A DNA stretch of 64,000 nt, taken from the NCBI RefSeq assembly GCF_030384885.1, contig NZ_CP128613.1; one strand, given 5' to 3'. The translations under genes and the position numbers were made by a program. This document shows, in pieces, positions 12,365 through 26,669 of the stretch (position 1 is its first letter; each line of letters starts with the position of its first letter). Origin of the DNA: Escherichia coli. Lineage in GTDB: Bacteria > Pseudomonadota > Gammaproteobacteria > Enterobacterales > Enterobacteriaceae. The notes below the pieces were generated by a model, which was given only the letters and a program-made list of their open reading frames with translations, was not told the DNA's origin and made no database searches.

Positions 12365-14011
12365 TTATTCAACCTCTTCGCAGATATCCTGAGTTAATCG
12401 CCGCATAATATCTTTCCTTAACAAAAACTTTTGTATTTTACCTGATGCAGTACGTGGTAATTTCTCTGTTACCACAATATGTTCAGGATATTTATATTTT
12501 GCTACCCGTTTACGGCTAAAAAAAGCCACTATGTCTTTCAGCGATATTGAATGATGTGGCGCTTTCAGCACGACATAAGCGCATGAACGTTCACCTAAGC
12601 GTTCATCGGGCATTGCCACAACACAAGCATCATGAATTTTAGGATGCTGTAATAAAATATCTTCCACTTCACGACTGCTAATATTTTCCCCGCCGCGGAC
12701 AATAATATCTTTCTTGCGCCCGGTTATTTTTATATAGCCAGCTTCATCCATTCGGCAGAGATCGCCGCTGTAATACCAGCCTTCTTCATCCAGCGCACGG
12801 GCGGTTAATTCAGGTTCATCAAAATACCCCATAAATACATTGGGGCCACGCGAGGCTTCTTCACCTACACAACCAGGCGGTAAGGTCTTGCGTGCATCAT
12901 CGACCACTTTAATCTCTACGCCTGCGGCAGCGTAACCATCGGTGTTCATAAAGCGCGACAAAGGATCGTCGAGATTTACCACCGCATGCGGCGAACTTTC
13001 TGTGGAACCATAAACACTTAATAATTTAATGCCGCGTTGTTGGCATTCACGCGCCACCTTTTTGGGGATCGTGGTGCCGCCGCAAAGAAAGAAGCGGAGT
13101 GCTGAAAGGTCCGCAGGCTGTTTTTCCAGTAAGTTCAGCAAATCATAGACAAATGGCGTGGCGCCGAGCATACAGGTGCAACGCTGCTGCTCAAGCAGCG
13201 CGAGACACGCATCAGGAGTGAAAATATCTAACAACACGCTGCGAGCACCAATCAAAAAAGGTGCCGTTACGCCATGCAGAAAGCCCGTTGCGTGACCAAG
13301 TGGCGCAGGCATCATAAAGACATCCTGCCAGGTCAGGTTCAGCCGCGCGCAATATGCCCGCTCACTGGCGAGAATATTGTTATGCGTTAGCATCACGCCC
13401 TTTGGCTGCCCCTCAGTTCCGGAGGTAAATAGCACTGCTGCTAATTCATCGCCGTGGACCGTTATTGCCTTAGTCAGTGGGGTATTGTCGGCGATAAGAT
13501 GACTTAACGAGAGGGACGAGGTGGCGGGGGCCAGTTTGTCGACGCCGACGATTTGCTGTAGTTGTGGAAGCTGATTTTGCAGCGGCAGGATTAAATCTAC
13601 CGGACGCGTTTGTTTAAACAACGTCGGTGCAAAGAACATTTTTGCCTGACACTTATTGAGCACCCACACCAGTTCAGCCTCCCGCCAGGAAGGCAACAGC
13701 GGCACGGAAACCGCACCGGTTTTCAGGCAGGCAAGATAGATAACGGTAAATTCACACCAGCCAGGCAGTTGAAAAGCAATGCGATCCCCTGATTCAATAC
13801 CCTTCGCCAGCATCCAGTTTGCCAGACAGCTCGCGGCGTGATCGAGCTCGCTATAGGTGTACGATGCACCATGATTATCGACCACGGCAATTTTATCTGG
13901 CATCGAACGAGCGGTCTGCTGCCAGTAATCGGCCAGCGAAGCATCGCCCCATAATCCTTGTTGACGATAAGCCGCACGACGTTGTTCGTTAAACGTTAAT
14001 GTCACTTTCAT
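12365..14011 (-). CDS. fadK: Short/medium-chain acyl-CoA synthetase (anaerobic)
   Basis: 548-aa frame from internal ATG (MKVTLTFNEQ...) of the 566-aa track ORF; AMP-binding signature FTSGTEGQPKGV. Confidence 0.9.
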   Translation of the reverse strand: MKVTLTFNEQRRAAYRQQGLWGDASLADYWQQTARSMPDKIAVVDNHGASYTYSELDHAASCLANWMLAKGIESGDRIAFQLPGWCEFTVIYLACLKTGAVSVPLLPSWREAELVWVLNKCQAKMFFAPTLFKQTRPVDLILPLQNQLPQLQQIVGVDKLAPATSSLSLSHLIADNTPLTKAITVHGDELAAVLFTSGTEGQPKGVMLTHNNILASERAYCARLNLTWQDVFMMPAPLGHATGFLHGVTAPFLIGARSVLLDIFTPDACLALLEQQRCTCMLGATPFVYDLLNLLEKQPADLSALRFFLCGGTTIPKKVARECQQRGIKLLSVYGSTESSPHAVVNLDDPLSRFMNTDGYAAAGVEIKVVDDARKTLPPGCVGEEASRGPNVFMGYFDEPELTARALDEEGWYYSGDLCRMDEAGYIKITGRKKDIIVRGGENISSREVEDILLQHPKIHDACVVAMPDERLGERSCAYVVLKAPHHSISLKDIVAFFSRKRVAKYKYPEHIVVTEKLPRTASGKIQKFLLRKDIMRRLTQDICEEVE

Positions 14012-14067: not shown

Positions 14068-14361
14068 TTAGCCGTAGCGAAAATCAATACCGAAGGTGCC
14101 TGCGGGATATTGCCACTGTTCGAGAATCGTATTGCCACACAACACCCGACAGGTGCCGCATTCGAGACAACCGGCGGAATCAAAATGTATGTTTCCTGCG
14201 TCATCCTGCTTATACAGTCCGGCAGGGCAAGCTTTCATTAATTTACGGAATTCATTGATATCGGGATTTGCCGCCAGAATGATATGCGGGTGACCCTCAT
14301 CAACATGGAATTTATTGACACCTAATTTGATGTCGACGTTAACCGTAGCGTTCTGGCTCAT
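14068..14361 (-). CDS. ydiT: FixX-like ferredoxin
   Basis: 97-aa ORF with Cys cluster (CPAGLY...DSAGCLECGTCRVLC); start overlaps ydiS stop (ATGA). Confidence 0.9.
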   Translation of the reverse strand: MSQNATVNVDIKLGVNKFHVDEGHPHIILAANPDINEFRKLMKACPAGLYKQDDAGNIHFDSAGCLECGTCRVLCGNTILEQWQYPAGTFGIDFRYG

Positions 14362-15647
14362 AGCGCGGTTGCTCCCTTAATGCCATCTTTCAGCAAGTTG
14401 ATCAGCCCAATTTTCTTCGCATGTCCCATGATCATTTTGCGTACCGGTTGGTTAGGCTTACCGTCGATAGTGAACATTTCGTTCATGATGTCGGCGACCA
14501 TTCGTGGGTATTGGCTAAACAGGCGCGGGTTTTCCATCAGCGCCGGGATCTTGCGAAAATGCTGCATATCACGCATGACGCAACTTTGTTCCAGCTCACG
14601 TTTGTATTGCGCCAGGCTGCTGGCGGAGAAGTCAGCGCGTTCTTTAGCGGCAATCACTGTTGTGGCAGCAGCCTGGGCCGATGCGATGGCTAAATCCATT
14701 CCGCGAACCGTAAAGCCCAGATTGAGGCAGAAACCTGCGGCATCACCGACGATCATCACGCCCTCATTAACCAGCTGCGGCACCATCGCCAGACCGCCTT
14801 CCGGCACCATGTGCGCGGAATATTCAAGCAGTTTGCCGCCGCTAATCAGTGGGCGAATGGCGGGGTGTTGTTTAAAATCTTCCAGCATTTGCGGCACGCT
14901 TTTTTTTGCATGGGCGATATCACCCAATCCACAAACCAGCCCCAACGATACGGAATCCTTGTTGGTATAGAGGAATCCGCCGCCCATCAGGCCGTCAGAA
15001 GGGGAACCGGCAAACAGCCAGGCGGTACCTTCCTCGCCCATAACATTAAAGCGATCGTTGATTTGCTCTGGTGTAAGACCAATAACCTCTTTAACACCAA
15101 CTGCGTAATGATGCGGATCGGAAGCGGGAACCATTCCCAGCGAGCGGCCAAGCATTGAGTTAACGCCATCAGCCAGAATCACTACATTCGCTTCGAGAAT
15201 ATCCTCCCCGGCCTGGACGCCAGTGACCTTGTTTCCTTCACGAACCAGCGCATCGACGCGAACACCCGGGATAAACTGCGCACCCGCCTGTTCGGCTAGT
15301 TCCATCAACCACGGGTCCAGACGATTACGCAATACGGTATAAGACGCGTGTTGCGGAACATCTGGTTGCTCGCGGTGAAAATCGAGGGTAACGGCACTCT
15401 CTTCGGTTAAGAAGGAGATTTTCTCGCGTGTGACCTTGCGTTCTACCGGTGCTGATGCAGCAAAGCCCGGAATGATCGCTTCAAGTGTGTGGGCATAAAG
15501 ACGCCCGCCGGTCATATTTTTGCATCCGGCACTGTCGCCGCGTTCTATCACCAGGACATCCAGCCCGGCTCGCGCCATGACCAGTGCGGCAACGCTACCG
15601 GCAACGCCCGCACCGACCACAATGGCATCAAATTTGTCATCCGACAT
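14358..15647 (-). CDS. ydiS: FixC-like flavoprotein (ETF-quinone oxidoreductase family)
   Basis: 429-aa ORF with N-terminal FAD-binding GxGxxG (VVGAGVAGSVAA). Confidence 0.92.
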   Translation of the reverse strand: MSDDKFDAIVVGAGVAGSVAALVMARAGLDVLVIERGDSAGCKNMTGGRLYAHTLEAIIPGFAASAPVERKVTREKISFLTEESAVTLDFHREQPDVPQHASYTVLRNRLDPWLMELAEQAGAQFIPGVRVDALVREGNKVTGVQAGEDILEANVVILADGVNSMLGRSLGMVPASDPHHYAVGVKEVIGLTPEQINDRFNVMGEEGTAWLFAGSPSDGLMGGGFLYTNKDSVSLGLVCGLGDIAHAKKSVPQMLEDFKQHPAIRPLISGGKLLEYSAHMVPEGGLAMVPQLVNEGVMIVGDAAGFCLNLGFTVRGMDLAIASAQAAATTVIAAKERADFSASSLAQYKRELEQSCVMRDMQHFRKIPALMENPRLFSQYPRMVADIMNEMFTIDGKPNQPVRKMIMGHAKKIGLINLLKDGIKGATAL

Positions 15648-15701
15648 GCGTTATGCTCCCTTCCCGCTGCGTTTACAGCGGGAGATGTGGTTGAAAGGGA
15701 A

Positions 15702-16640
15702 TTAGCGACTCAACTGACTAATCAGGGCAGGGACGACTTTGTAGATATCGCCCACCAGACCGTAGTCGGCATAGTTGAAGATTGGCGCATTTTTATCTTT
15801 ATTAATGGCGACAATCACTTTTGCACCGTTGCCGCCAACCATATGCTGGATCTGCCCGGAGATCCCCAGCGTCAGGTAGAGATCGGATTTCAGCAACACG
15901 CCGGAGACACCGATATAACGTTCACGCTCCATCCAGTTCTCGCCTTCGGCAATTGGACGTGAACAGCCGACTTCAGCATTCAGAACCGCCGCCAGTTCGT
16001 GGACCATTTTCAGGTCATCCTGCGCCGCCAGACCACGACCGACGCCAACCACACGTTTTGCTTTGCTCAGGTCCACGCTGCTTGCCGCTTTCGCACGGCG
16101 TTCGCGACAGAGAATTTCATGACGCGGGGCAACATAAGGTACCGTTTCTGTCGGGCACTGATGAGAGATATCACTGGTGCACGGTTCCTGAACACCGGGT
16201 GCAAGGGTAATGATCGCCAGCGGGCTGTTGATCTTTTCCTGAGCGAACGCTAACCCGCCATACATCCGGTGTTCGGCGCAAATGTGACCATCGACAATAT
16301 CCACCGCCGTGGCATCGTTCACCAGCGCCGCATTCAGTTGCACACTTAACCGTGCTGCCAGAGCTTTACCACGTTTCGTCGCGGCCAACAGCAACATAGC
16401 GGGGTGTTTATCTTTCAGCAGGGCAGCAATGCTTTCGGCGTAATTTTCAGTACGTTGCAGCGCGTCGTTTTGTTCAAGAACATAAATACATTTTGGCCCA
16501 TAAGGCATAACTGCCTGCGCCTGGTCGGTATTTTGTACAATGGCATACACCTGTTGGCCCCATTGCTGAGCGCCGCCAAACAGTTCAGCATAACGTTCAG
16601 GATTATCGCTAAAGACCCAGACGCTGTTTAATTGACTCAT
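15702..16640 (-). CDS. ydiR: Electron-transfer flavoprotein alpha subunit (FixB-like)
   Basis: 312-aa ORF of ETF-alpha family. Confidence 0.92.
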   Translation of the reverse strand: MSQLNSVWVFSDNPERYAELFGGAQQWGQQVYAIVQNTDQAQAVMPYGPKCIYVLEQNDALQRTENYAESIAALLKDKHPAMLLLAATKRGKALAARLSVQLNAALVNDATAVDIVDGHICAEHRMYGGLAFAQEKINSPLAIITLAPGVQEPCTSDISHQCPTETVPYVAPRHEILCRERRAKAASSVDLSKAKRVVGVGRGLAAQDDLKMVHELAAVLNAEVGCSRPIAEGENWMERERYIGVSGVLLKSDLYLTLGISGQIQHMVGGNGAKVIVAINKDKNAPIFNYADYGLVGDIYKVVPALISQLSR

Positions 16641-16659
16641 CGTTTCTTCTCCGTAGGCT

Positions 16660-17424
16660 TCAGTTCAGGGCTTTCTTCAGATGTTCCGCCAGCTCGGCAA
16701 TGGCCTCCGGCGAATCGTTATCGAGAATGATGTGCTTACGTTCTGTTTGCGGCGGTACGCGAATGCCGGTCAGTTCAGCAAGTGGTGTGCTCTGGCTCCA
16801 GCCAATATCACTTGCCTGCCACTGATTTACCGGTTTTTTACCCGCGCCGAGAATGGCTTTCATCGAAGGAATGCGTGGCATGTTAATATCGGAGGTGACG
16901 CAGAGCACGGCTGGAACAGAGAGCTCAATAACTTCAACATCATCTTCAAGCGTGCGTTCAATCACCAGTGTATTGCCCTGACGCTGAATAGCACTCACTG
17001 CATTAATCACCGGAAGTTGCAGAATTTCTCCGACCAGCAAGCCAACCTGCTGGGCATAAAGGTCGCCGGAACCTTCACCAAAGATCAGTAAATCGAAGCC
17101 GATCTTTTCAACTGCTGCCGCCAGCGCCTTTGCGGTATCGAGAGGCAGTGCATGTTCAAGTTGCGCATCCTGCACCAAATACAGGCTATGCGGCCCGCGG
17201 GATAGCACGTCTTTGCGCACTTTCGAGTTCTGCAACAATGAGCCGCCAATGGTCAGCGCGGCTATCTCATCGTCATCTGTTGCAATCTGGCTTGCAGCTT
17301 CAATGGCATTGAGATCGAACTGGCTGATTTTGGCGTCGGCATTGTCGAAATTCAGGGTATATTCTGGAGTGACAACAATGTCCTGTTCTTCAGGCACCAG
17401 CTTAAAGCAGGTTATTATTTTCAT
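16660..17424 (-). CDS. ydiQ: Electron-transfer flavoprotein beta subunit (FixA-like)
   Basis: 254-aa frame from internal ATG (MKIITCFKLVPEEQD...) with SD ctcacaggaga; the track ORF extends 33 codons upstream, which I reject. Confidence 0.9.
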   Translation of the reverse strand: MKIITCFKLVPEEQDIVVTPEYTLNFDNADAKISQFDLNAIEAASQIATDDDEIAALTIGGSLLQNSKVRKDVLSRGPHSLYLVQDAQLEHALPLDTAKALAAAVEKIGFDLLIFGEGSGDLYAQQVGLLVGEILQLPVINAVSAIQRQGNTLVIERTLEDDVEVIELSVPAVLCVTSDINMPRIPSMKAILGAGKKPVNQWQASDIGWSQSTPLAELTGIRVPPQTERKHIILDNDSPEAIAELAEHLKKALN

Positions 17425-17739
17425 GATTTCTCCTGTGAGTCGCATACGGAACCATCTCCGATGGAAGGTAAAAATGGCCTGAAAATAGTGTGCGATAGCG
17501 GTGCGGGGTTTTCGACGGAGCAAGCTGTTTTCCTTGCCAACAATCTTGCAAAAAAAATGCGATCGCTAAAACAAAAGTGCAATTTGCGGCAAAGTTGTTA
17601 TTCCATGACCGTACAATCTTGCATTCAGTGTAAATAATCTTGTTTAGCTCTCGCTAAACGCGGTTGTATAACCGCAATACACGCCGTATTTTATCCGGCA
17701 TATATTGTTTTTGCTTGCTCATGGAATAGGGAGGTTGTC

Positions 17740-18651
17740 ATGTATCAACGCTGTTTTGATAACGCCAGCGAAACGCTGTTTGTCGCCGGTAAAACGCCAC
17801 GGCTTTCACGTTTTGCATTTAGCGATGATCCAAAATGGGAGTCCGGACATCACGTTCATGACAATGAAACCGAGTTGATTTACGTCAAGAAAGGGGTAGC
17901 AAGGTTTACCATCGATTCTTCGTTATATGTCGCGCATGCCGATGACATTGTGGTGATAGAACGTGGCAGGTTGCATGCGGTGGCCTCTGACGTTAACGAT
18001 CCGGCAACGACGTGTACCTGTGCGCTGTACGGCTTTCAGTTTCAGGGGACTGAGGAAAATCAGCTACTGCAACCGCATTCTTGCCCGGTCATTGCCGCAG
18101 GGCAGGGAAAAGAAGTCATTAAAACCTTATTTAATGAGCTAAGTGTGATTTTGCCGCAAAGTAAAAATAGCCAAACATCTTCGTTATGGGACGCATTTGC
18201 CTATACGTTAGCAATTCTTTACTACGAAAACTTTAAAAATGCTTATCGTTCGGAGCAGGGGTATATTAAAAAAGATGTTCTGATAAAAGATATTCTTTTC
18301 TATCTGAATAATAATTATCTCGAAAAAATCACTTTAGAGCAGTTATCGAAAAAATTTCGTGCCAGCGTCAGTTATATCTGCCATGAATTTACCAAAGAGT
18401 ATCGTATTTCCCCTATTAACTATGTTATTCAACGGCGTATGACGGAAGCGAAATGGTCACTCACTAATACTGAATTATCACAGGCAGAGATCTCCTGGCG
18501 TGTGGGTTATGAAAATGTCGATCACTTTGCCAAACTGTTTTTGCGCCATGTCGGCTGTTCGCCCAGCGATTACCGCAGGCAATTTAAAAACTGTTTTGCG
18601 GAACAAGAAATCCTATCTGAATTTCCTCAACCAGTAAGTCTTGCCGGATAA
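17740..18651 (+). CDS. ydiP: AraC/XylS-family transcriptional regulator
   Basis: 303-aa ORF with C-terminal AraC-type HTH region; divergent from ydiQ operon. Confidence 0.9.
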   Translation: MYQRCFDNASETLFVAGKTPRLSRFAFSDDPKWESGHHVHDNETELIYVKKGVARFTIDSSLYVAHADDIVVIERGRLHAVASDVNDPATTCTCALYGFQFQGTEENQLLQPHSCPVIAAGQGKEVIKTLFNELSVILPQSKNSQTSSLWDAFAYTLAILYYENFKNAYRSEQGYIKKDVLIKDILFYLNNNYLEKITLEQLSKKFRASVSYICHEFTKEYRISPINYVIQRRMTEAKWSLTNTELSQAEISWRVGYENVDHFAKLFLRHVGCSPSDYRRQFKNCFAEQEILSEFPQPVSLAG

Positions 18652-18693: not shown

Positions 18694-19845
18694 TTATTTG
18701 TTCTGATAATCTTTCAGGATCTGCCGACCCGCTACGTAAATCATAATTTCGTCTGTACCGCCGCCGATACGTTCACAACGGACATCACGCCAGAAGCGGG
18801 AGACGCGCGCCTCATCGGTATAGCCCAGACCGCCCATGATTTGAATCGCATCATCAATAACTTCCATTGCGGTACGTGCGCAGTACAGTTTTGCCAGCGC
18901 CGCGCTGGTGCGCAGTGACTGATGCTGATCGGCTTGCCATGCCACTTTCAACACCATGTTGCGCATGTTGTCGATCTTAATCGCCATCAGCGCCAGTTTT
19001 TCCTGGATCATCTGGTTATGACCAATGGGTTTACCAAAAGCGATACGTTGGTTGGCATAGCGGGCGGCATCTTCGAATGCGCATTCGGCAAAGCCGGTGC
19101 TGCGCGCGGCGTTGATCAGGCGCTCCATCTCAAAGTTGTACATCACATTGAGGAAACCCATTCCTTCTTCGCCCACCATGTCGCTCTCTTCAACCTCTAC
19201 GTTGTCGAGATAGACTTCGCAGGTGCTGAGCATATGCCAGCCGATTTTATGCAGCGGGTTAATCTTAATGCCGGGCTTACTGGAGTCGACCCACCACAGG
19301 GTGAAGGCTTTTTTGGGATCTTTCGGTTCTGGATCGCGCGCCAGCACCAGCATATATGGGTACTCTTTCGCGCCGGTAATAAAGGTTTTCTGGCCGTTGA
19401 TGTAAACCTTGCCATTTTTACGCGTGTAAGTGGTAGTGGCACTGTTATTGTCTGAGCCTGCGCCTGGTTCCGTCAACGCCAGGGCATAGGCGGGATCACC
19501 CGTTTCCAGGGTGCTCTCTGCCGTTTTACGTAGCTGCTCAGCAGAACCGAAACGGCGCATGCTGTGAATACATTGACCGTTGGTAATCAAAAATGCCGGA
19601 GCACCGCATTTTGACACTTCCATCAGCGCCAACATCTGGGTGACGTAATCCGCAGGGATGCCACCAAATTCTTCCGGCACGCCAAGCATAGAAATGCCGT
19701 TATCCGCCAGTGCCCGCATAAACTCACGCGGGTATGTCCCGTTTTGATCGCAGGTGCGGAAATACTCTTCCGGGAAGTTGGTCGTAATCAACTCGCGAAT
19801 ACTGGCCAGCAGCAGTTCTTGTTCTTCAGTTAAAGAAAAATCCAT
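18694..19845 (-). CDS. ydiO: Acyl-CoA dehydrogenase family protein
   Basis: 383-aa frame from internal ATG (MDFSLTEEQELL...) with SD aacaggagta; ACAD-family sequence. Confidence 0.9.
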   Translation of the reverse strand: MDFSLTEEQELLLASIRELITTNFPEEYFRTCDQNGTYPREFMRALADNGISMLGVPEEFGGIPADYVTQMLALMEVSKCGAPAFLITNGQCIHSMRRFGSAEQLRKTAESTLETGDPAYALALTEPGAGSDNNSATTTYTRKNGKVYINGQKTFITGAKEYPYMLVLARDPEPKDPKKAFTLWWVDSSKPGIKINPLHKIGWHMLSTCEVYLDNVEVEESDMVGEEGMGFLNVMYNFEMERLINAARSTGFAECAFEDAARYANQRIAFGKPIGHNQMIQEKLALMAIKIDNMRNMVLKVAWQADQHQSLRTSAALAKLYCARTAMEVIDDAIQIMGGLGYTDEARVSRFWRDVRCERIGGGTDEIMIYVAGRQILKDYQNK

Positions 19846-19858
19846 CGTGATACTCCTG

Positions 19859-21454
19859 TTAATGAGCCGCTTCAGGCAGGACAAAACCCATCGCCGCATC
19901 GATAAATAATCTTTCGTCCATCAGTTTGAGTTCTGGTGAAATCACTGGGGTGAAATCCATTTTGTCGAGAATATCTTTTTGTAAATCGACGCCAGGGGCG
20001 ATTTCGATTAAATGCAGGCCGTCTTCTTTTAGCGTGAATACGGCGCGCTCAGTGATATAACGAACATCCAGCCCTCGCTCGAGAGCGATTTTTCCGCTGA
20101 AAGTAATTTCCGGTAGTTCCCGAATAAATTTCTTCACCCGTCCTTCCTGGACGATATTTAATTTGCCGTCGGTAATTTCTGTTTTTAAACTGCCCGCAGT
20201 TAACGTGCCGCAGAAAACGATTTTCTTCGAAGTGGCACTGATATCAATAAATCCACCGGTGCCCATGATTTTACCATTGAATTTATGCACGCCGACGTTA
20301 CCGTGCTGGTCGACTTCAGCAAAACTCAAATAACAAACATCCAGACCGCCACCGTGATAAAAATCAAACTGGGACGTCATATCCAGAATGGCACGGGTAT
20401 TCACGTTCGCGCCAAAGGCGATACCCTGTGAAGTAATACCGCCAATTGGGCCTGTTTCTACCGTCAGAATAAAGTCATCAGCACAACCTTCTTCCCGGGC
20501 GACCAGGCCAATGCCGTCAGCAATACCGACGCCGACATTCCCCACCGCGCCTTTACGCATTTCGAATAATGCGCGCCGCGCAACTAATTTACGTTGGTTT
20601 AGGGGCAGGCTAAGTTTGGTACTGTCATCAAGGGTGAAGTCACCAGAAATAAAGCGGTTAACCGGCGCACCGCCATACAGTTGGGTTTGATCCGGATCGA
20701 CCACCACAATATCCACCAGATAACCCGGAATACGGACAGATTTAGGATGCAGCGTGGCTTTCTTAACCATTTTCTGCACCTGCATCATCACAATACCGCC
20801 GTTATTGTGCACCGCCTGAGCAATAACCAATGCGTCGAGATACATCACCTCATCTTCAAAAGTGGCGTAGCCTTCGCTGTCGCAGGTGGTAGCGCGAATG
20901 AAGGCGATATCTGGCGCTATCGCTTTGTAATAGAGATATTCTTTGTTATCAAACTCGACCAGTTTAATCAGGTCTTCTTTAGTGACTTCATTCAGTTTGC
21001 CGCCTTGCTGGCGTGGATCGACAAATGTTCCGATGCCAATATCACTAATAATACCAGGCTGGTGGGCTGCGGCGGCGCGTAAGGTTTGTGTAAGTACACC
21101 TTGTGGATAGTTATAAGCAATAATTTTATTTTGTTCTGCGAGATCAGAAATACGCGGCGATTGTCCCCAGTGACCGCATAATGCCCATTTCACCAGACCT
21201 TCTTGTGCCAGCGGACTAATACCACGGTCGGCGCGATCGCCAAGCCCTGTTGGACTAATAATCGATAAATTACGTGGTGTTTGAGTCTGTTTATATTTAT
21301 CAGCAAGAGCAGTAATTAACGTGGTGGCTTCCAGAATACCGCCGCCAGCGCCTAACACACAAAGTGTTGCTTCGTCGGGAATATAATTCACCGCTTCCTG
21401 TGCCGACAGGACCGGCACTCGTCCATTAATACGAGGTGGTTTTACAGGTTTCAT
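19859..21454 (-). CDS. ydiF: Family I CoA-transferase (acetate/short-chain acyl-CoA transferase, fused alpha-beta)
   Basis: 531-aa ORF recognised as YdiF. Confidence 0.92.
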   Translation of the reverse strand: MKPVKPPRINGRVPVLSAQEAVNYIPDEATLCVLGAGGGILEATTLITALADKYKQTQTPRNLSIISPTGLGDRADRGISPLAQEGLVKWALCGHWGQSPRISDLAEQNKIIAYNYPQGVLTQTLRAAAAHQPGIISDIGIGTFVDPRQQGGKLNEVTKEDLIKLVEFDNKEYLYYKAIAPDIAFIRATTCDSEGYATFEDEVMYLDALVIAQAVHNNGGIVMMQVQKMVKKATLHPKSVRIPGYLVDIVVVDPDQTQLYGGAPVNRFISGDFTLDDSTKLSLPLNQRKLVARRALFEMRKGAVGNVGVGIADGIGLVAREEGCADDFILTVETGPIGGITSQGIAFGANVNTRAILDMTSQFDFYHGGGLDVCYLSFAEVDQHGNVGVHKFNGKIMGTGGFIDISATSKKIVFCGTLTAGSLKTEITDGKLNIVQEGRVKKFIRELPEITFSGKIALERGLDVRYITERAVFTLKEDGLHLIEIAPGVDLQKDILDKMDFTPVISPELKLMDERLFIDAAMGFVLPEAAH

Positions 21455-21597
21455 TGTTAATTCCTGATTCAGGTGTGATTTTCCCTACGCCAGATGGAGA
21501 ATTAGCGCACAGAGACTCACGAAATATTTTTATTAAATACGGTTGAATATATTTTTTTGTTCGGCGGGGGAGGGTATTCCCGCCGAAATATTATTGC

Positions 21598-22356
21598 TTA
21601 TGCCTGATGTAAAATAGTTAATACCGTGCGCAAATCATTTACCGAGATTTGCCCTGGCGCAGAGGCTTTTTTTACCGCACCAAAAGTTGCCGCCGAGCCA
21701 AATACTTCACCAGCCAGACGAGAAATTACGCCAGTTTTTGCCATCGACATCGTGATGATTGGACGATCGGCATACTGCTCCTGCATCTCCAGGGTCGCAG
21801 CAAGCAACGTCAGCACATCGCTGGTACTTTGCGGCATCAGCGCAATCTTAGGAATATCGGCATCGAAGGACTGCATTTTGCGCAGACGGGCAATGATTTC
21901 TTCGGCTTCCGGCGTTTTATGGAAGTCATGGTTGGACATGACAACTTTCACATCATGCGCGTGGGCGTAGGCGACGGTTTCTTTAACCTGATCATCGCCG
22001 GTAAATAACTCCAGATCGATCATATCAACCAGGCCACTATCGATGGCTGCACGATTGAGTGCAATATAAGCCTCGGTGGAAATCGCCTGCTCGCCGCCTT
22101 CTTTGGCACTGCGGAAGGTAAACAGCAGCGGTTTTTCTGGCATGGTTTCACGGAGAATTTTTGCCGCTGCCATGACAGACTCCACATTGGAGAGGTCGGC
22201 ATAGTGGTCAACACGCCATTCCAGAATATCAAAGTCCGCTTCACGATAGGCGAGAGCTTCGGATTTCACGCTGGCGATATCTTTCGCCATCAGCGAGACG
22301 ATGATTTTAGGTGCGCCCGTACCAATGACGAGATCTTTTACAGTTACGGTTTTCAT
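21598..22356 (-). CDS. aroD: 3-dehydroquinate dehydratase, type I
   Basis: 252-aa [55 protein letters not shown]... Confidence 0.96.
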
Positions 22357-22386
22357 TTTTTACCCTTTCTGCACGCGGTCAGCCTG

Positions 22387-23253
22387 TCAGGCACCAAACC
22401 CCATGACCTGTTTAACATATTCCAGAGGGAAATCTTTGCCAGTCCATAACGTGAACTGTTCAGCCCCTTGCCACAACAACATGCCGTATCCATCAATCGT
22501 TTTGCAACCAGCTTGTTGCGCCTGCTGCAATAACTTCGTCATATGCGGGTTATACACGCATTCAGTGACCAGAAGTCCCGGATGTAACAGACTGATATCA
22601 TTAACCAATGATTCATTCTCAAGGGGTTTCATACCCACTTTTGTGCCATTGGTTAAAATGTCGGCGGAAGCCAGGGCTTCAGCAAAGGCTTGCTGATCGG
22701 CGAGATCGGTGACTGTCACGACGCAATCGGTGTTTTCGTTAACCCGCTGCGCGAAGGCGAGGGCTTTATCGAAGAACTCATCCCGACGGTTAAAGAGTTT
22801 AATTTCTTTTAAACCTTCAATTGCCCCCTGCGCGCCAATCGCCGTTGAGGCACCTCCGGCCCCTAACAGCACCATCGTTTTGCCTTTGATATCAAAACCG
22901 CTCTCTTTAATGGCGCGAATATGCCCCGTGCCGTCGGTGTTATAGCCACGCAGATAGCCATCATCATTAACGATGGTGTTGATGGCCCCCACCAGTTTGG
23001 CAGCTGGTGTTAATTCATCAACATATTCACACGCCAGTTGTTTGTTCGGCATTGATACACCAGTTCCGCGCATTTTTAGAGCTTTTAATCCTTCAATTGC
23101 TCCGGGAAAGCTATCGTTATCCACTTCAAAGGCCATATAGGTAAATGGCAATCCCGCTTTTTCTAAGGCTTTATTCTGCATTTCGGGCGATAAACTGTGG
23201 CGGATAGGATAGGCCATCAACCCAATCAATTCGTATTTTGCGGTAACATCCAT
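22387..23253 (-). CDS. ydiB: Quinate/shikimate dehydrogenase, NAD(P)-dependent
   Basis: 288-aa ORF of the AroE/YdiB family with GAGGA nucleotide-binding motif. Confidence 0.94.
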
Positions 23254-23264
23254 AATTAACTCCT

Positions 23265-24530
23265 TTAACCTCTATGCTTAATTGTGTTTAACCGGGTGCT
23301 AAATTTACGCTCGCCAAACCGCACATCATTTTCAGGAATAATGAAAACGCGGTAATAGCGGATAAAAACAATAATTGCGGTAATCAGGGCCAGCAGCGCG
23401 AAAGTAAAATCGAGAACAATGATATATTGCAGGCCGATGTTCGACAGATAACCGGTAATCAGCGGAATAACAAAGTTAGCCAGTCCACCCATCATCATAT
23501 AAATACTGGTGACTTTGGCTTTGCTTTTGGGGAAAAACTCTGACATGACCGAAACGCCGAGCTGTAAAATGCCGCCAGCCGCTGAGAAACCGATAACAAA
23601 GGCTCCGGCATTACACACCAGTGGAGAAGGGTACAGGTAGATAATGGCAGCTGTTATTGTTGCCAGTGCAGAGTTAAATACATTAGCCCAGATGGGCCGG
23701 ACCATTTTTTTCAGTAGTGCGGCAAAAATAAAGACACAGACCAACGAGCCCATACTGTAATAAGAGATGGTTTTTAATGCCTCAGCTTCTGACATACCAG
23801 CAAAAGCCATCGCATATTTGGGCATCCACACCACAATCACATAAAAGGTCGAGAATGCGGCTACACCGAACAGTACCGATGAAACACCTTCCAGCCAGAC
23901 TAATGGTTTGCTGTTCATTTGTGGTAATTCATGAGCTACGCTGGCGTCCACCAACTGGCTGGGGAATTTGCTTTTCAACAGCATCAACGTGATCAGTAAA
24001 AATAGGATGCCTGGAATAATCAGCCCATAGCCGTACCAGATATTATTGAGCAACATATAGCTCACTAGCATTGGATAGAACATTTGTCCAAATGACACCA
24101 TTGCTTTAACCAGTATGACTGCCGAACCGGAGGCTTTCGGAAAGCATTCCATTAGCGCGGGGTAACCACCCGTATCCAATGCTGAGTTAGCGATACCTAC
24201 GCACACTGCCAGACAGTAGGCGAGAGTTAAATTCGGGCAAGCGGGAATACCAAAGAAGAATAGCAGATACATTATTACTGCCATTAATATTACCGCCCGA
24301 CGACCAAACTTATCGGAGATCACACCGAAGAATAAAATACTGATCAATCGCCCCAAACCGATACCGGAAATTAAATAGGCAATGCCCGCGTTGTCAGTAG
24401 AAAACTTTTCTGCCAGAGATGACATATTTTGGGCAAGCGTTATAACACTAATGCCGTGCAGGAAATAGCTGAAGTAAATACAAAGAACAGCCAGGATAAA
24501 TGGCGTGCTGAAAGCCTTATTTTGAGACAT
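23265..24530 (-). CDS. ydiN: MFS transporter
   Basis: about 421-aa 12-TM hydrophobic ORF; I chose the ATG with AAGGAG SD (track ORF starts 2 codons earlier at GTG). Confidence 0.88.
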
Positions 24531-24756
24531 TTTCACAGCTCCTTGCTGAAAGATAATTTCGTTACCGTACGTATTGTTCTCCGACGGTTTACATAATTAC
24601 TATACTGAAGATGATTTTCCCTGGGTACATGGCATAAAGTTTATGTTTCCAGGAATATTGCATGTCATAGTTTGTTTTTTATCGCGATTTTCCTTAGTTG
24701 GCGCAGAAAGAGTTATTTATCCGTAAGATCTTGCATGACCTGAAAAGAATATTGCA

Positions 24757-25971
24757 TTACCCACCCGGAGCGACATTTTCCTTTAGCGAGTGATGCCACG
24801 TTTCTTTGCGGCTGCGTAAGCCGATAAACAGTGCCAGTAAAAAGCCGATGGCAGCGATGGCGGTATCGAACCACATAATATCGGCAATACTTCTTTGGGA
24901 CAGATGAGCCGTAATCAACGGAATAGTAAAGGTCGCAATACTGCCCGCACTGTAATAGATCCCTGTAGCTTTACCTTTAGCGTAGGGGAAACGTTCAGCC
25001 ATTAATGTCAGGCCAATTTGCACAACACCTCCAGCAGAGGTAAAACCAATGACAAAAGCAAATATTATCACCACATAAAATGTGGGATGCAGACAGACGG
25101 TAAACAGAGCAATAAATGAGATAAAGGTGTACAGCATCAGTAATGTTGTTGGGCGAACGGTATTACGAATGAGTGGAGCGGTAATAAATACACAAAGCAG
25201 CGAACCCACGGTGTAGATACTGAGTAGTTTGATCGACATAGTGTATGACATGCCTGCAACAAATTGTCCGTACTGTGCCAGCCACTGGCTAACCAGATAA
25301 AAGGTTGCCATTGAGATATAGCCATATAAGGTATAACTGGCTAAATCGATAATTGAACAGCGATGTTCCGTAGAGTTGGTGGCTTTCTCTATGACAGGTA
25401 AGCGACGACCCGGATGTGGTGGGAACGTACAACGGTATAAAAACAGAGCGTTAATAAACATAATGCCTGCGGCAATCATAAAGGACCAGCCGAACCACAG
25501 TTCAGCCCACACTAACAGGCTGATGATTAGCGGTAATAAAAATTGCCCGCTGGAAACAAATGCTTTAATTAAAATATTAGCTGTACCCGGTGAACGTGGA
25601 AAAGCTTCCATCAAACTGGGATAGGTGCCTGCATCGAGAAAACTGTTTGCCATTCCCGCCAGAAAGCCCAAACCATAAGCGATAATGATGTTATTGGTGT
25701 GCAGGATGCCAAAAAAGAAGGCCATATAGCAGCACATCCCGAGCATGATAAAAGGGCGGCGACCAAAGCGATCGGATAATAATCCTGCAAAAAGCAAGAC
25801 ACTTAATCGACCAATACCCAGCGATGAGATAACTATTGAGACGCCTGCGGCATTAGTCTGCCAAAGCGTCTCCAGCGAGGCCATATTCAGGCTCATCAAA
25901 ATGACGCCCATACCATGCACCAGGTAATTAAAATACAACCCAAGTGCGGTAGGGAAATAGGGATTTTTCAT
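24757..25971 (-). CDS. ydiM: MFS transporter
   Basis: 404-aa hydrophobic ORF, paralogous in architecture to ydiN. Confidence 0.9.
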   Translation of the reverse strand: MKNPYFPTALGLYFNYLVHGMGVILMSLNMASLETLWQTNAAGVSIVISSLGIGRLSVLLFAGLLSDRFGRRPFIMLGMCCYMAFFFGILHTNNIIIAYGLGFLAGMANSFLDAGTYPSLMEAFPRSPGTANILIKAFVSSGQFLLPLIISLLVWAELWFGWSFMIAAGIMFINALFLYRCTFPPHPGRRLPVIEKATNSTEHRCSIIDLASYTLYGYISMATFYLVSQWLAQYGQFVAGMSYTMSIKLLSIYTVGSLLCVFITAPLIRNTVRPTTLLMLYTFISFIALFTVCLHPTFYVVIIFAFVIGFTSAGGVVQIGLTLMAERFPYAKGKATGIYYSAGSIATFTIPLITAHLSQRSIADIMWFDTAIAAIGFLLALFIGLRSRKETWHHSLKENVAPGG

Positions 25972-26069
25972 AGGTTCTACTTAGCAAAGGTGCTTTAAAA
26001 AGTGAAGCGATGTTGTGTCAGCATCCGTTCATTATTGTTGTAACAACGACAATTCCTTTCTTTGGAAAA

Positions 26070-26426
26070 TTAACAAAGGCGCTCCAGATCGTGTGCATAT
26101 AATTCAGCGGCTACCGATTGATAGATCTTCCAGTCAATAAAATTGCCATCAGGGTAGACACGTTGAAACGCGGTTAAGTCAGGGAAAAAACGCATGGTGT
26201 TGTTGCCGATGTGGTTATTTATTTTCTCTATGATGGCATGAAGATGTTTTTTTCGTTGCTGTCGCATAGCCAACAGTTGCTCGACCACACGATCAGGAAT
26301 GGCGCATTTGCCATTTTCCCACTGACGCCAGCTTTCACTGTCACCGGTCTGGGCAATCCAGGTCGCGCATTCATCAATAGTCATGGCAAAAATATGGCGG
26401 AGTGCCTGGAGTTCATAAGCGTTCAT
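26070..26426 (-). CDS. ydiL: Uncharacterised protein YdiL
   Basis: 118-aa frame from internal ATG (MNAYELQALRHIF...); the track ORF begins at an upstream TTG. Confidence 0.85.
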   Translation of the reverse strand: MNAYELQALRHIFAMTIDECATWIAQTGDSESWRQWENGKCAIPDRVVEQLLAMRQQRKKHLHAIIEKINNHIGNNTMRFFPDLTAFQRVYPDGNFIDWKIYQSVAAELYAHDLERLC

Positions 26427-26563
26427 CGTGTAATGGCTGCATGAAATAAACAATAAAATATAAATAACATTATCAGCCTGCTGACGGCTTGAAGAGAGTC
26501 ACAGTATCTTGTGCAACATTATTGGAAAGAGTGAGGGGCGAGGTAGCGAAGCGGAAAAATGTT

Positions 26564-26669
26564 AAAAAAAAGCCCATCGTGGGAGATGGGCAAAGACTAC
26601 ACACAGCAATTCGTTGTTTCACTCAGGGGATTTCCATGCTTATAAATCAATATGTTGATTTATAACCGT
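26564..26669 (-). ncRNA. rprA: RprA small regulatory RNA (RpoS translational activator)
   Basis: minus-strand sequence ACGGTTATAAATCAACATATTGATTTATAAGCATGGAAATCCCCTGAGTGAAACAACGAATTGCTGTGTGTAGTCTTTGCCCATCTCCCACGATGGGCTTTTTTTT matches RprA as I remember it, with terminal hairpin and U-tract; located in ydiL-ydiK intergenic region. Confidence 0.9.

Follow-up and report, generated by a model that had tools for sequence, protein, structure and literature searches.

Comparative genomics suggests a link between the ydiN-ydiB-aroD genes of Escherichia coli and the adjacent coenzyme A and electron-transfer genes

Introduction

Do the genes that interconvert quinate and shikimate in Escherichia coli work together with the coenzyme A (CoA) genes beside them? 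The question is raised by a 64,000-nucleotide stretch of the E. coli contig NZ_CP128613.1 (assembly GCF_030384885.1), hereafter the window. It carries the major facilitator superfamily (MFS) transporter genes ydiM and ydiN, the quinate/shikimate dehydrogenase gene ydiB and the 3-dehydroquinate dehydratase gene aroD, and next to them the CoA-transferase gene ydiF, the acyl-CoA dehydrogenase (ACAD)-family gene ydiO, the regulatory gene ydiP, the electron-transfer flavoprotein (ETF) and FixCX-like genes ydiQRST and the ligase gene fadK. The genes ydiM, ydiN, ydiB and aroD, flagged by a first-pass annotation, are real, ordinary and already known.

Transport of shikimate-pathway compounds by YdiN is an already published hypothesis and is still a proposal. 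The genes ydiN, ydiB and aroD are co-expressed and rise under carbon limitation, and YdiN was proposed to carry shikimate or by-products (Johansson & Liden 2006, as summarised in PMC4585142). According to a 2023 survey, about 75% of YdiM/YdiN homologues adjoin a shikimate-pathway gene (PMC10588857). Both publications thus group YdiN/YdiM with shikimate-pathway genes, as is done here, but stop at those genes, whereas the present reading extends to the CoA and ETF genes. In the searchable literature, which covers few subscription journals, ydiO and ydiF are not mentioned together with shikimate, no CoA-dependent route for shikimate or quinate reduction is described, and no earlier claim links the CoA genes of Sutterella to shikimate. 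The link from the hydroaromatic module to the adjacent CoA enzymes is absent from that literature and is the new part of this work.

The comparisons described below make it probable that the hydroaromatic and CoA genes are functionally linked. There is about an even chance that ydiN-ydiB-aroD form the front end of a larger co-regulated unit with ydiF-ydiO, ydiP, ydiQRST and fadK, which would operate as a CoA loop similar to the cai/fix system. A specific reductive mechanism through shikimoyl-CoA is put forward more tentatively. The case for linkage was built entirely in silico, from co-inheritance, retention through rearrangement, interleaved operons, non-orthologous replacement and a shared upstream motif.

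Gene neighbourhoods of YdiN homologues

One genome per species was scanned with a YdiN alignment, and 13 E. coli proteins were mapped on the 77 loci returned. Transporters with at least 60% identity, taken as YdiN orthologues, occur at 43 loci, two of which are cut off before ydiB. All of the 41 informative loci contain ydiB, aroD and ydiF, and each seeming loss of ydiO, ydiQ, ydiR, ydiS or ydiT coincides with the end of the contig or of the fetched stretch. The taxa concerned are Escherichia, Citrobacter, Kosakonia, Intestinirhabdus, Yersinia, Serratia, Dickeya, Brenneria, Symbiopectobacterium and Prodigiosinella. The gene ydiP accompanies the cluster in Enterobacterales, in Sutterella seckii and in the clusters L007, L010 and L091 described below.

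The remaining 34 loci, from Lactobacillaceae, Enterococcus, Megasphaera, Klebsiella and Phytobacter, hold more distant transporter homologues, closer to YdiM than to YdiN. The usual order in them is LysR-ydiB-MFS-aroD, with ydiB present in 34/34 and aroD in 32/34, and genes of the CoA module are found in three. On this comparison the hydroaromatic cassette appears to be an independent, mobile unit, and the CoA module an addition specific to the loci with YdiN orthologues.

These neighbourhoods also bear on the cargo of the transporters. YdiN and YdiM could be exporters or carriers of something else (by-product efflux, copper-related transport, isoprenol tolerance), in which case their position next to ydiB and aroD would say nothing about uptake. 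A ydiN deletion raises the shikimate titre by about 1.3-fold only (PMC8788726), and the partial matches of YdiN and YdiM to the aromatic acid:H+ symporter model TIGR00895 (43.8 and 35.4 bits) lie far under its cut-off of 418.55. The Transporter Classification Database nevertheless places the two proteins at 2.A.1.15.13 and 2.A.1.15.12, respectively, despite the low TIGR00895 scores (PMC10588857). The frequent adjacency reported in the 2023 survey, the near-constant presence of ydiB and aroD beside the distant homologues, and the LysR regulators of their cassettes, typical of inducible catabolic units, all speak against an unrelated cargo, as does the setting of a homologue in Telmatospirillum described below. 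We consider this explanation very unlikely; it is possible mainly for YdiM, which the 2023 survey ties to copper handling and to the bo3 oxidase (PMC10588857).

The Telmatospirillum locus belongs to a metagenome-assembled genome (MAG; L009/L052), in which a YdiN homologue (51% identity) is divergent from genes for a TetR-family regulator, a type II dehydroquinase (DHQase II) and a shikimate dehydrogenase (SDH). Within about 9 kb downstream lie a chemoreceptor gene, an ACAD gene and a YdiF-like CoA-transferase gene (43%). A gene with AP_endonuc_2 and glyoxalase domains, typical of 3-dehydroshikimate dehydratases, is also found within about 9 kb, near that homologue only. Both hydroaromatic routes may coexist in this organism.

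Several further observations concern the distribution of these genes. Klebsiella pneumoniae, Phytobacter ursingii and Kosakonia sp. S29 (L083-L085, L087) carry a separate cassette of ydiB-like (51%), YdiM-like MFS (60-62%), aroD-like (53-57%) and LysR genes. It resembles the cassette of Lactobacillaceae, Enterococcus and Megasphaera, has no CoA genes nearby and looks like a second mobile hydroaromatic module. In Yersinia, Serratia, Symbiopectobacterium and Pectobacteriaceae (L004, L005, L030-L039, L047, L054), a divergent LysR-family gene lies between ydiM and ydiN, and its product shares 35-39% identity with the LysR protein encoded in the Firmicute cassettes. The gene has been lost from Escherichia, Citrobacter and Kosakonia, and the leftover 226-bp spacer holds three TGCAA boxes. 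Finally, a 21.8-kb contig of Martelella alba BGMRC 2031 (L043), a genome named as alphaproteobacterial, has an Enterobacterales-type ydi cluster. Its proteins are between 62% (YdiP) and 91% (YdiO) identical to those of E. coli, and the cluster was likely brought in by contamination of the assembly or transferred very recently.

Rearranged clusters outside the Enterobacterales

The main rival explanation is that two unrelated modules are neighbours. The first, ydiN-ydiB-aroD, would serve hydroaromatic equilibration or aromatic biosynthesis; the second, ydiF-ydiO-ydiQRST-fadK, would be an anaerobic fatty-acid or short-chain acyl-CoA system. Their adjacency in Enterobacterales would be inherited synteny, and Sutterella would have taken the whole block in one transfer. 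We regard this explanation as improbable, and clusters in which the genes are rearranged are the more informative in this respect.

In Sutterella seckii and S. wadsworthensis (Betaproteobacteria), fadK-ydiT-ydiS-ydiR-ydiQ is divergent from ydiN-ydiB-aroD-ydiF-ydiO. The flanks are different, and neither ydiL nor ydiM is present. Identity to the E. coli proteins is 83% for YdiF, 80-84% for YdiO and 59-62% for FadK. The metagenome contigs L007 and L010, which are independent assemblies 97% identical to each other and about 67-70% identical at the DNA level to E. coli or Sutterella, have the genes running in a single direction in the order ydiN-ydiF-ydiO-ydiQ-ydiR-ydiB-aroD-ydiS-ydiT; the spaces between them range from an overlap to about 140 bp. 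Both hydroaromatic enzymes are therefore encoded within the ETF genes. In L091 (YdiF 70%) the order is AraC-MFS-MFS-ydiF-ydiO-ETFb-ETFa-ydiB-aroD-ApbA-MaoC-glyoxalase. Synteny alone does not predict interleaved operons of this kind.

The association was also approached in reverse, from five YdiF homologues sampled outside Enterobacterales with 61-76% identity. In four of the five, YdiF has beside it a gene for a type I or type II dehydroquinase, for a shikimate dehydrogenase, or for both. The neighbours are SDH-YdiF-YdiO-ApbA in L088 (YdiF 76%), LysR-YdiF-MaoC-DHQase II-ApbA in L089 (65%) and, in L090 from Sedimentibacter (64%), a TRAP transporter, an SDR gene and YdiF-MaoC-ApbA-DHQase II, the dehydroquinase scoring above the aroQ equivalog cut-off (TIGR01088). 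Type II dehydroquinases share no common ancestry with AroD, yet catalyse the same reaction. Such an enzyme next to YdiF is hard to explain unless the CoA-transferase serves dehydroquinate/dehydroshikimate chemistry, and its occurrence in Firmicutes (L089, L090) is unaccounted for if the modules are unrelated. In Megasphaera paucivorans, a YdiF homologue with 60% identity is encoded about 3.4 kb from a ydiB-MFS-aroD cassette.

A further arrangement, found in Sporolactobacillus sp. CQH2019, reads ACAD-ETFb-ETFa-FixC(58%)-FixX(59%)-LysR-ACAD-ydiB-aroD-MFS-MFS-ligase, the ligase being 53% identical to FadK. The CoA-transferase here comes from another family, AcetylCoA_hydro (acetyl-CoA hydrolase/transferase). 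By its gene content this cluster appears to be an independent rebuild of the same combination in another phylum, which unrelated modules leave unexplained as well. In versions of the cluster outside E. coli, genes for a MaoC hydratase, an ApbA-family reductase and a glyoxalase-fold protein suggest that the CoA ester is taken further there, perhaps by removal of hydroxyl groups.

Two single-copy gene calls show fusions: P0007 joins YdiN with YdiB (668 aa, E. coli-like) and P0175 joins the SDH N-domain with YdiF (651 aa). Artefacts at a stop codon or from a frameshift are the probable cause, yet the calls show how closely the genes abut.

Regulatory sequences

A position weight matrix (PWM) was trained on ydiQ-proximal sites alone, from a box that changes hardly at all from Escherichia to Yersinia and Dickeya (Table 1). 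The second-best hit in the window lies upstream of ydiN, with 18.0 bits. This score was reached anywhere in two of 20 shuffles of the window, so a hit in this very 226-bp gap and on the right strand is unlikely by chance. Most YdiN-orthologue species loci have a hit in the same orientation about 130-290 bp upstream of ydiN and are nearly free of hits elsewhere; in the two Sutterella species the match falls within the divergent spacer between ydiQ and ydiN.

A second box type, TGCAAKATNNTNNGG, has one occurrence near ydiP and another upstream of ydiN, a total of two in the 64 kb where 0.10 would be expected. The 73-bp spacing between boxes is common to the ydiQ and ydiN regions, and the latter has an extra 21-bp tandem, also seen in Intestinirhabdus, in a MAG and, beside the AraC gene, in L007. 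An exact match to the motif was rejected for the low-GC clusters, where PWM scores are low; in L007, TGCAAGAT boxes 21 bp apart adjoin the AraC gene. The same operator-like motif accordingly lies upstream of both the ydiN and the ydiQ unit, as a single regulon would have it, and unrelated modules do not account for it. A dimer of the AraC type would fit direct repeats spaced by 21 bp, or two helical turns. The AraC gene accompanying the cluster is ydiP, and we infer its product to be the candidate binder of the shared boxes. A sigma-54 promoter reading of the proximal box was dropped, the GG-to-GC spacing being a misfit by eye.

An FNR peak was found in vivo at ydiP/ydiQ by chromatin immunoprecipitation (ChIP) (Grainger 2007). 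An exact FNR-type site, TTGACGTAAATCAA, lies inside the ydiP coding region, not in the spacer, and fits the site predicted for that peak.

No copy of the shared motif was found upstream of ydiM in E. coli, and Prodigiosinella has one weak match. Because ydiM lacks the motif and is absent from the Sutterella and L007/L010/L091 clusters, ydiN rather than ydiM is the transporter gene linked to the CoA genes, and the co-inherited unit probably does not include ydiM. The first-pass annotation had suggested that a module of all four genes could feed the neighbouring CoA enzymes; the comparative data lend substantial in silico support to this idea for ydiN, ydiB and aroD, and the share assigned to ydiM probably falls away.

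Organization of the locus

The region is typical of the species. Positions 21000-26500 match E. coli strain 2013C-4282 at 100% (megablast), and the region is present in 5425 of 5426 complete E. coli genomes, with at least 80% of the stretch covered in 5323. As first described, aroD, ydiB, ydiN and ydiM are contiguous and co-oriented. They lie on the minus strand, and the annotation agrees to the base: the group was reported to extend from the last base of aroD to the first base of ydiM, just as annotated. Their placement downstream of ydiF, by contrast, is true solely in the plus-strand coordinates of the window, since the genes are read from the minus strand. Transcription runs ydiM>ydiN>ydiB>aroD>ydiF>ydiO, which puts the transporters and aroD upstream of ydiF and ydiO.

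Table 1. Features of the ydiL-fadK region and its surroundings. Gene coordinates are those of the RefSeq annotation carried over to window coordinates.
Feature	Position	Strand	Description
rprA small RNA	~26562-26669	-	just beyond ydiL
rprA terminator	26572-26591	-	intrinsic terminator hairpin, GCCCATC...GATGGGC then T8
ydiL	26070-26426	-	Pfam Aca2_YdiL; small HTH protein related to anti-CRISPR-associated Aca2
ydiM	24757-25971	-	MFS transporter, ydiN paralogue (RefSeq annotation)
Direct-repeat boxes TGCAATATTCTTTTC and TGCAAGATCTTACGG	24721-24756	-	21 bp apart; begin right after ydiM stop; 73 bp from ydiN-proximal box
ydiN box TGCAATATTCCTGGAAACATAAACTT	24637-24662	-	132 bp upstream of ydiN ATG; same motif as ydiQ-proximal box
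ydiN	23265-24530	-	MFS transporter, proposed hydroaromatic-acid carrier; leads ydiN-ydiB-aroD(-ydiF-ydiO) array (RefSeq annotation)
ydiB	22387-23253	-	NAD(P)-dependent quinate/shikimate dehydrogenase; 11 nt from ydiN
aroD	21598-22356	-	type I 3-dehydroquinate dehydratase; 30 nt downstream of ydiB
GC-rich hairpin	21560-21587	-	aroD-ydiF gap; 9-bp stem; RNA fold -18.2 kcal/mol, z = -3.3
ydiF	19859-21454	-	fused family I CoA-transferase; Pfam CoA_trans; crystal structures 2AHU/2AHV/2AHW
ydiO	18694-19845	-	ACAD-family enzyme; NF008997, ACAD domains
ydiP	17740-18651	+	AraC-family regulator; Pfam HTH_18, Cupin_2, AraC_binding
FNR-type site TTGACGTAAATCAA	17875-17888	-	inside ydiP coding region
Distal box TGCAAGATTGTACGG	17609-17623	-	ydiP-ydiQ intergenic region; 73 bp from proximal box
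Proximal box TGCAAGATTGTTGGCAAGGAAAACAG	17525-17550	-	26 bp; 126 bp upstream of ydiQ ATG; top PWM hit in window
ydiQ, ydiR, ydiS, ydiT	14068-17424	-	ETF beta, ETF alpha, FixC-like ETF:quinone oxidoreductase, FixX-like ferredoxin (annotation)
fadK	12365-14011	-	AMP-forming acyl-CoA ligase (annotation)

The family identities given at first to AroD and YdiB were borne out. AroD scores 292.2 bits against TIGR01093 (cut-off 139.3) and 260 bits against Pfam DHquinase_I (cut-off 22.2). YdiB reaches 669.9 bits with the quinate/shikimate dehydrogenase equivalog NF009390 (cut-off 349) and has both the Shikimate_dh_N and SDH_C domains. YdiN and YdiM belong to MFS_1 (115 and 133 bits, cut-off 33.4) and, since they are 37% identical over 385 residues (E=4e-87), are true paralogues, as had been proposed. 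YdiO scores 786 bits against NF008997. In orthologous loci, the Pfam domains ETF, ETF_alpha and ETF-QO_FixC_C were found in ydiQRS and the AMP-binding domain in fadK.

Two features flank the cluster on the ydiM side. In each of the 38 Enterobacterales loci long enough to show it, ydiL lies upstream of ydiM, and it is missing from the Sutterella and metagenomic clusters; the rprA small RNA gene follows just beyond it.

Arguments for separate modules

A number of observations weigh against a single unit, and several of them are what unrelated neighbouring modules would lead one to expect. The aroD-ydiF gap is 143 nt long, and the stable hairpin predicted in it bears on co-transcription in E. coli. 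The terminator scan flags this hairpin on the plus strand only. A canonical intrinsic terminator after aroD was rejected, the coding strand having no U-tract. Read-through is compatible with the hairpin but not demonstrated by it; the structure may act as a partial terminator or stabilise the mRNA. No promoter-like site was found in the gap, and no box of the shared motif lies upstream of ydiF in any species scanned. Read-through from ydiN into ydiF is plausible from this arrangement.

The regulator is a second difficulty. Published work on YdiP reports cold-shock gene targets, and ydiN and ydiQ are not mentioned in the supplements of the published YdiP ChIP-seq study.

The distribution of the genes likewise leaves room for separation. 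The many Enterobacterales loci amount to few independent observations because they are related by descent, and Sutterella may have gained the block in a single transfer. The hydroaromatic cassette can work alone, since 31 of the 34 cassette loci with a distant YdiN homologue have no CoA genes nearby. Among the YdiF homologues sampled in reverse, that of Cloacibacillus (L092, 61%) has MaoC and FabK-like enoyl reductase genes near it and neither a dehydroquinase nor a shikimate dehydrogenase gene, and E. coli itself is without the MaoC and ApbA partners of other cluster versions.

Existing assignments of the CoA genes point to fatty acids. By their RefSeq names, fadK encodes a medium-chain ligase and ydiF an acetate/3-ketoacid CoA-transferase; in the literature, ydiO is reported to be important for fatty-acid use in a fadE mutant, and ydiO and ydiQRST have served as parts for beta-oxidation reversal. 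Finally, S. wadsworthensis has dozens of flavin reductases, one of which may be its shikimate reductase (bioRxiv 10.1101/2022.12.26.521950). Against these points stand the interleaved operons, the type II dehydroquinases beside YdiF, the Sporolactobacillus cluster and the motif shared by ydiN and ydiQ, and we continue to prefer a functional link between the hydroaromatic and CoA genes.

Proposed pathway

Shikimate is an alpha,beta-unsaturated acid, and dehydration by AroD creates that double bond from quinate-derived dehydroquinate. From the gene content we infer the substrates, a CoA thioester intermediate and the direction of a pathway of five steps. YdiN would take up quinate, shikimate or dehydroshikimate. 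YdiB and AroD would then convert quinate to dehydroquinate, dehydroshikimate and shikimate without net redox change, which would explain why a dual-specificity NAD enzyme is paired with a dehydratase. FadK would prime the cycle, after which YdiF would put CoA onto the ring carboxylate. YdiO, connected with the quinone pool by way of the ETF YdiQR and the FixCX-like YdiST, would work on the C1=C2 bond of the enoyl-CoA so formed. The product would be freed as YdiF passes CoA to the next substrate molecule.

The genes expected of a CoA loop are present: the ACAD-family YdiO with adjacent ETF alpha and beta genes (ydiQ, ydiR), and a CoA-transferase together with an AMP-forming ligase, ydiF and fadK, in one unit. 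The nearest named relative of YdiO is the crotonobetainyl-CoA dehydrogenase CaiA, and its relatives of known structure include Bcd and CarC (6fah_C, 158 bits). With 452 bits against the CaiA model NF002885 (cut-off 540), YdiO is not CaiA and is at best CaiA-like in its working. No 3-dehydroshikimate dehydratase gene lies between ydiL and fadK in E. coli, and catabolism of the protocatechuate type was ruled out for the cluster on this ground.

We favour the reductive direction, by analogy with these relatives: YdiO would reduce the enoyl-CoA, and the ring would serve as an anaerobic electron sink. S. wadsworthensis, which carries a complete ydi-type cluster, reduces the shikimate enoate to hydroshikimate, and its growth benefits from this (Little et al., bioRxiv 10.1101/2022.12.26.521950). 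Gut flora is also reported to convert shikimate to cyclohexanecarboxylate.

The same genes could work in the oxidative direction. Hydroshikimate and other reduced alicyclic acids, formed by other gut microbes, would be imported, activated to CoA esters and dehydrogenated by YdiO, with electrons passing through the ETF and YdiS to quinone; the shikimate released would be salvaged to aromatic biosynthesis or interconverted by YdiB and AroD. An ACAD, an ETF and an ETF:quinone oxidoreductase make up the canonical oxidative chain, gut species do make hydroshikimate according to the same preprint, and entry of shikimate would be simple in E. coli, where aroD is biosynthetic. This direction is nevertheless quite unlikely in our estimate: the nearest named relatives are reductive (CaiA with FixABCX, CarC, Bcd, AcrC), FNR binds at ydiP/ydiQ, the cluster-bearing S. 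wadsworthensis reduces shikimate, and AroD would be superfluous in a salvage route that ends at shikimate.

Comparison with known systems

The part-for-part match of the ydi genes with the Cai and Car systems draws on established knowledge of those systems. The carnitine system of E. coli, caiTABCDE with fixABCX, has a transporter, a CoA-recycling transferase, an AMP-forming priming ligase, an ACAD-family enoyl-CoA reductase and a dedicated ETF with FixC/FixX partners, all of which have counterparts in the ydi set; YdiQRST is FixABCX-like. The differences are that YdiF is a family I fused CoA-transferase, whereas CaiB belongs to family III, that the transporter is of the MFS rather than the BCCT type, that the ydi set of E. 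coli lacks a CaiD-type hydratase, and that YdiB and AroD would prepare the substrate, presumably a hydroxy-acid with a carbocyclic ring.

Caffeate respiration in Acetobacterium woodii (carABCDE) likewise combines a CoA loop (CarA transferase, CarB ligase) with an ACAD-type CarC and the ETF CarDE, and its substrate is also a plant-derived alpha,beta-unsaturated acid. Homology to the ydi proteins is distant, however, and the ydi set adds quinone-linked FixCX-like proteins and two enzymes that interconvert hydroaromatics.

The flavin-reductase shikimate respiration of Eggerthella lenta and S. wadsworthensis, as described in the preprint (bioRxiv 10.1101/2022.12.26.521950), has the net chemistry proposed here, shikimate to hydroshikimate as an anaerobic electron sink. 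It differs in that shikimate induced a single flavin reductase and CoA esters are not involved. In the accessible part of the text no S. wadsworthensis gene is assigned to shikimate and the term 'acyl-CoA' is absent.

The qui/qut/qsu clusters, which lead from quinate and shikimate to protocatechuate, also place a transporter, a quinate/shikimate dehydrogenase and a dehydroquinase under a dedicated regulator, and the Telmatospirillum YdiN homologue has a setting of this kind. The E. coli unit, in contrast, lacks dehydroshikimate dehydratase and ring-cleavage genes and has CoA and ETF genes instead.

Significance

Taken as a whole, the proposal is that eleven genes (ydiN, ydiB, aroD, ydiF, ydiO, ydiP, ydiQRST and fadK) form a regulon with which Enterobacterales, Sutterella and some low-GC gut bacteria use dietary quinate and shikimate as an anaerobic electron sink via CoA thioesters. 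In this full form it is speculative, and more doubtful than not. If true, the regulon would be a third, hydroaromatic member of the CoA-loop reductases of the cai/car type.

It would also give a genetic basis to the decades-old observation that gut flora reduces shikimate and quinate to alicyclic acids, which the host excretes as hippurate. Plant diets are rich in quinate and in hydroaromatics derived from chlorogenate, and the microbial reduction products feed hippurate formation in the host. For E. coli itself, ydiF, ydiO, ydiQRST and ydiP are among the genes without an assigned physiological role, and one pathway would link them. The reason why this species has a second, NAD-linked quinate/shikimate dehydrogenase has never been explained, and a single pathway would give a testable answer. 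In strains built for shikimate production, ydiB, ydiN and possibly ydiF and ydiO could drain the product.

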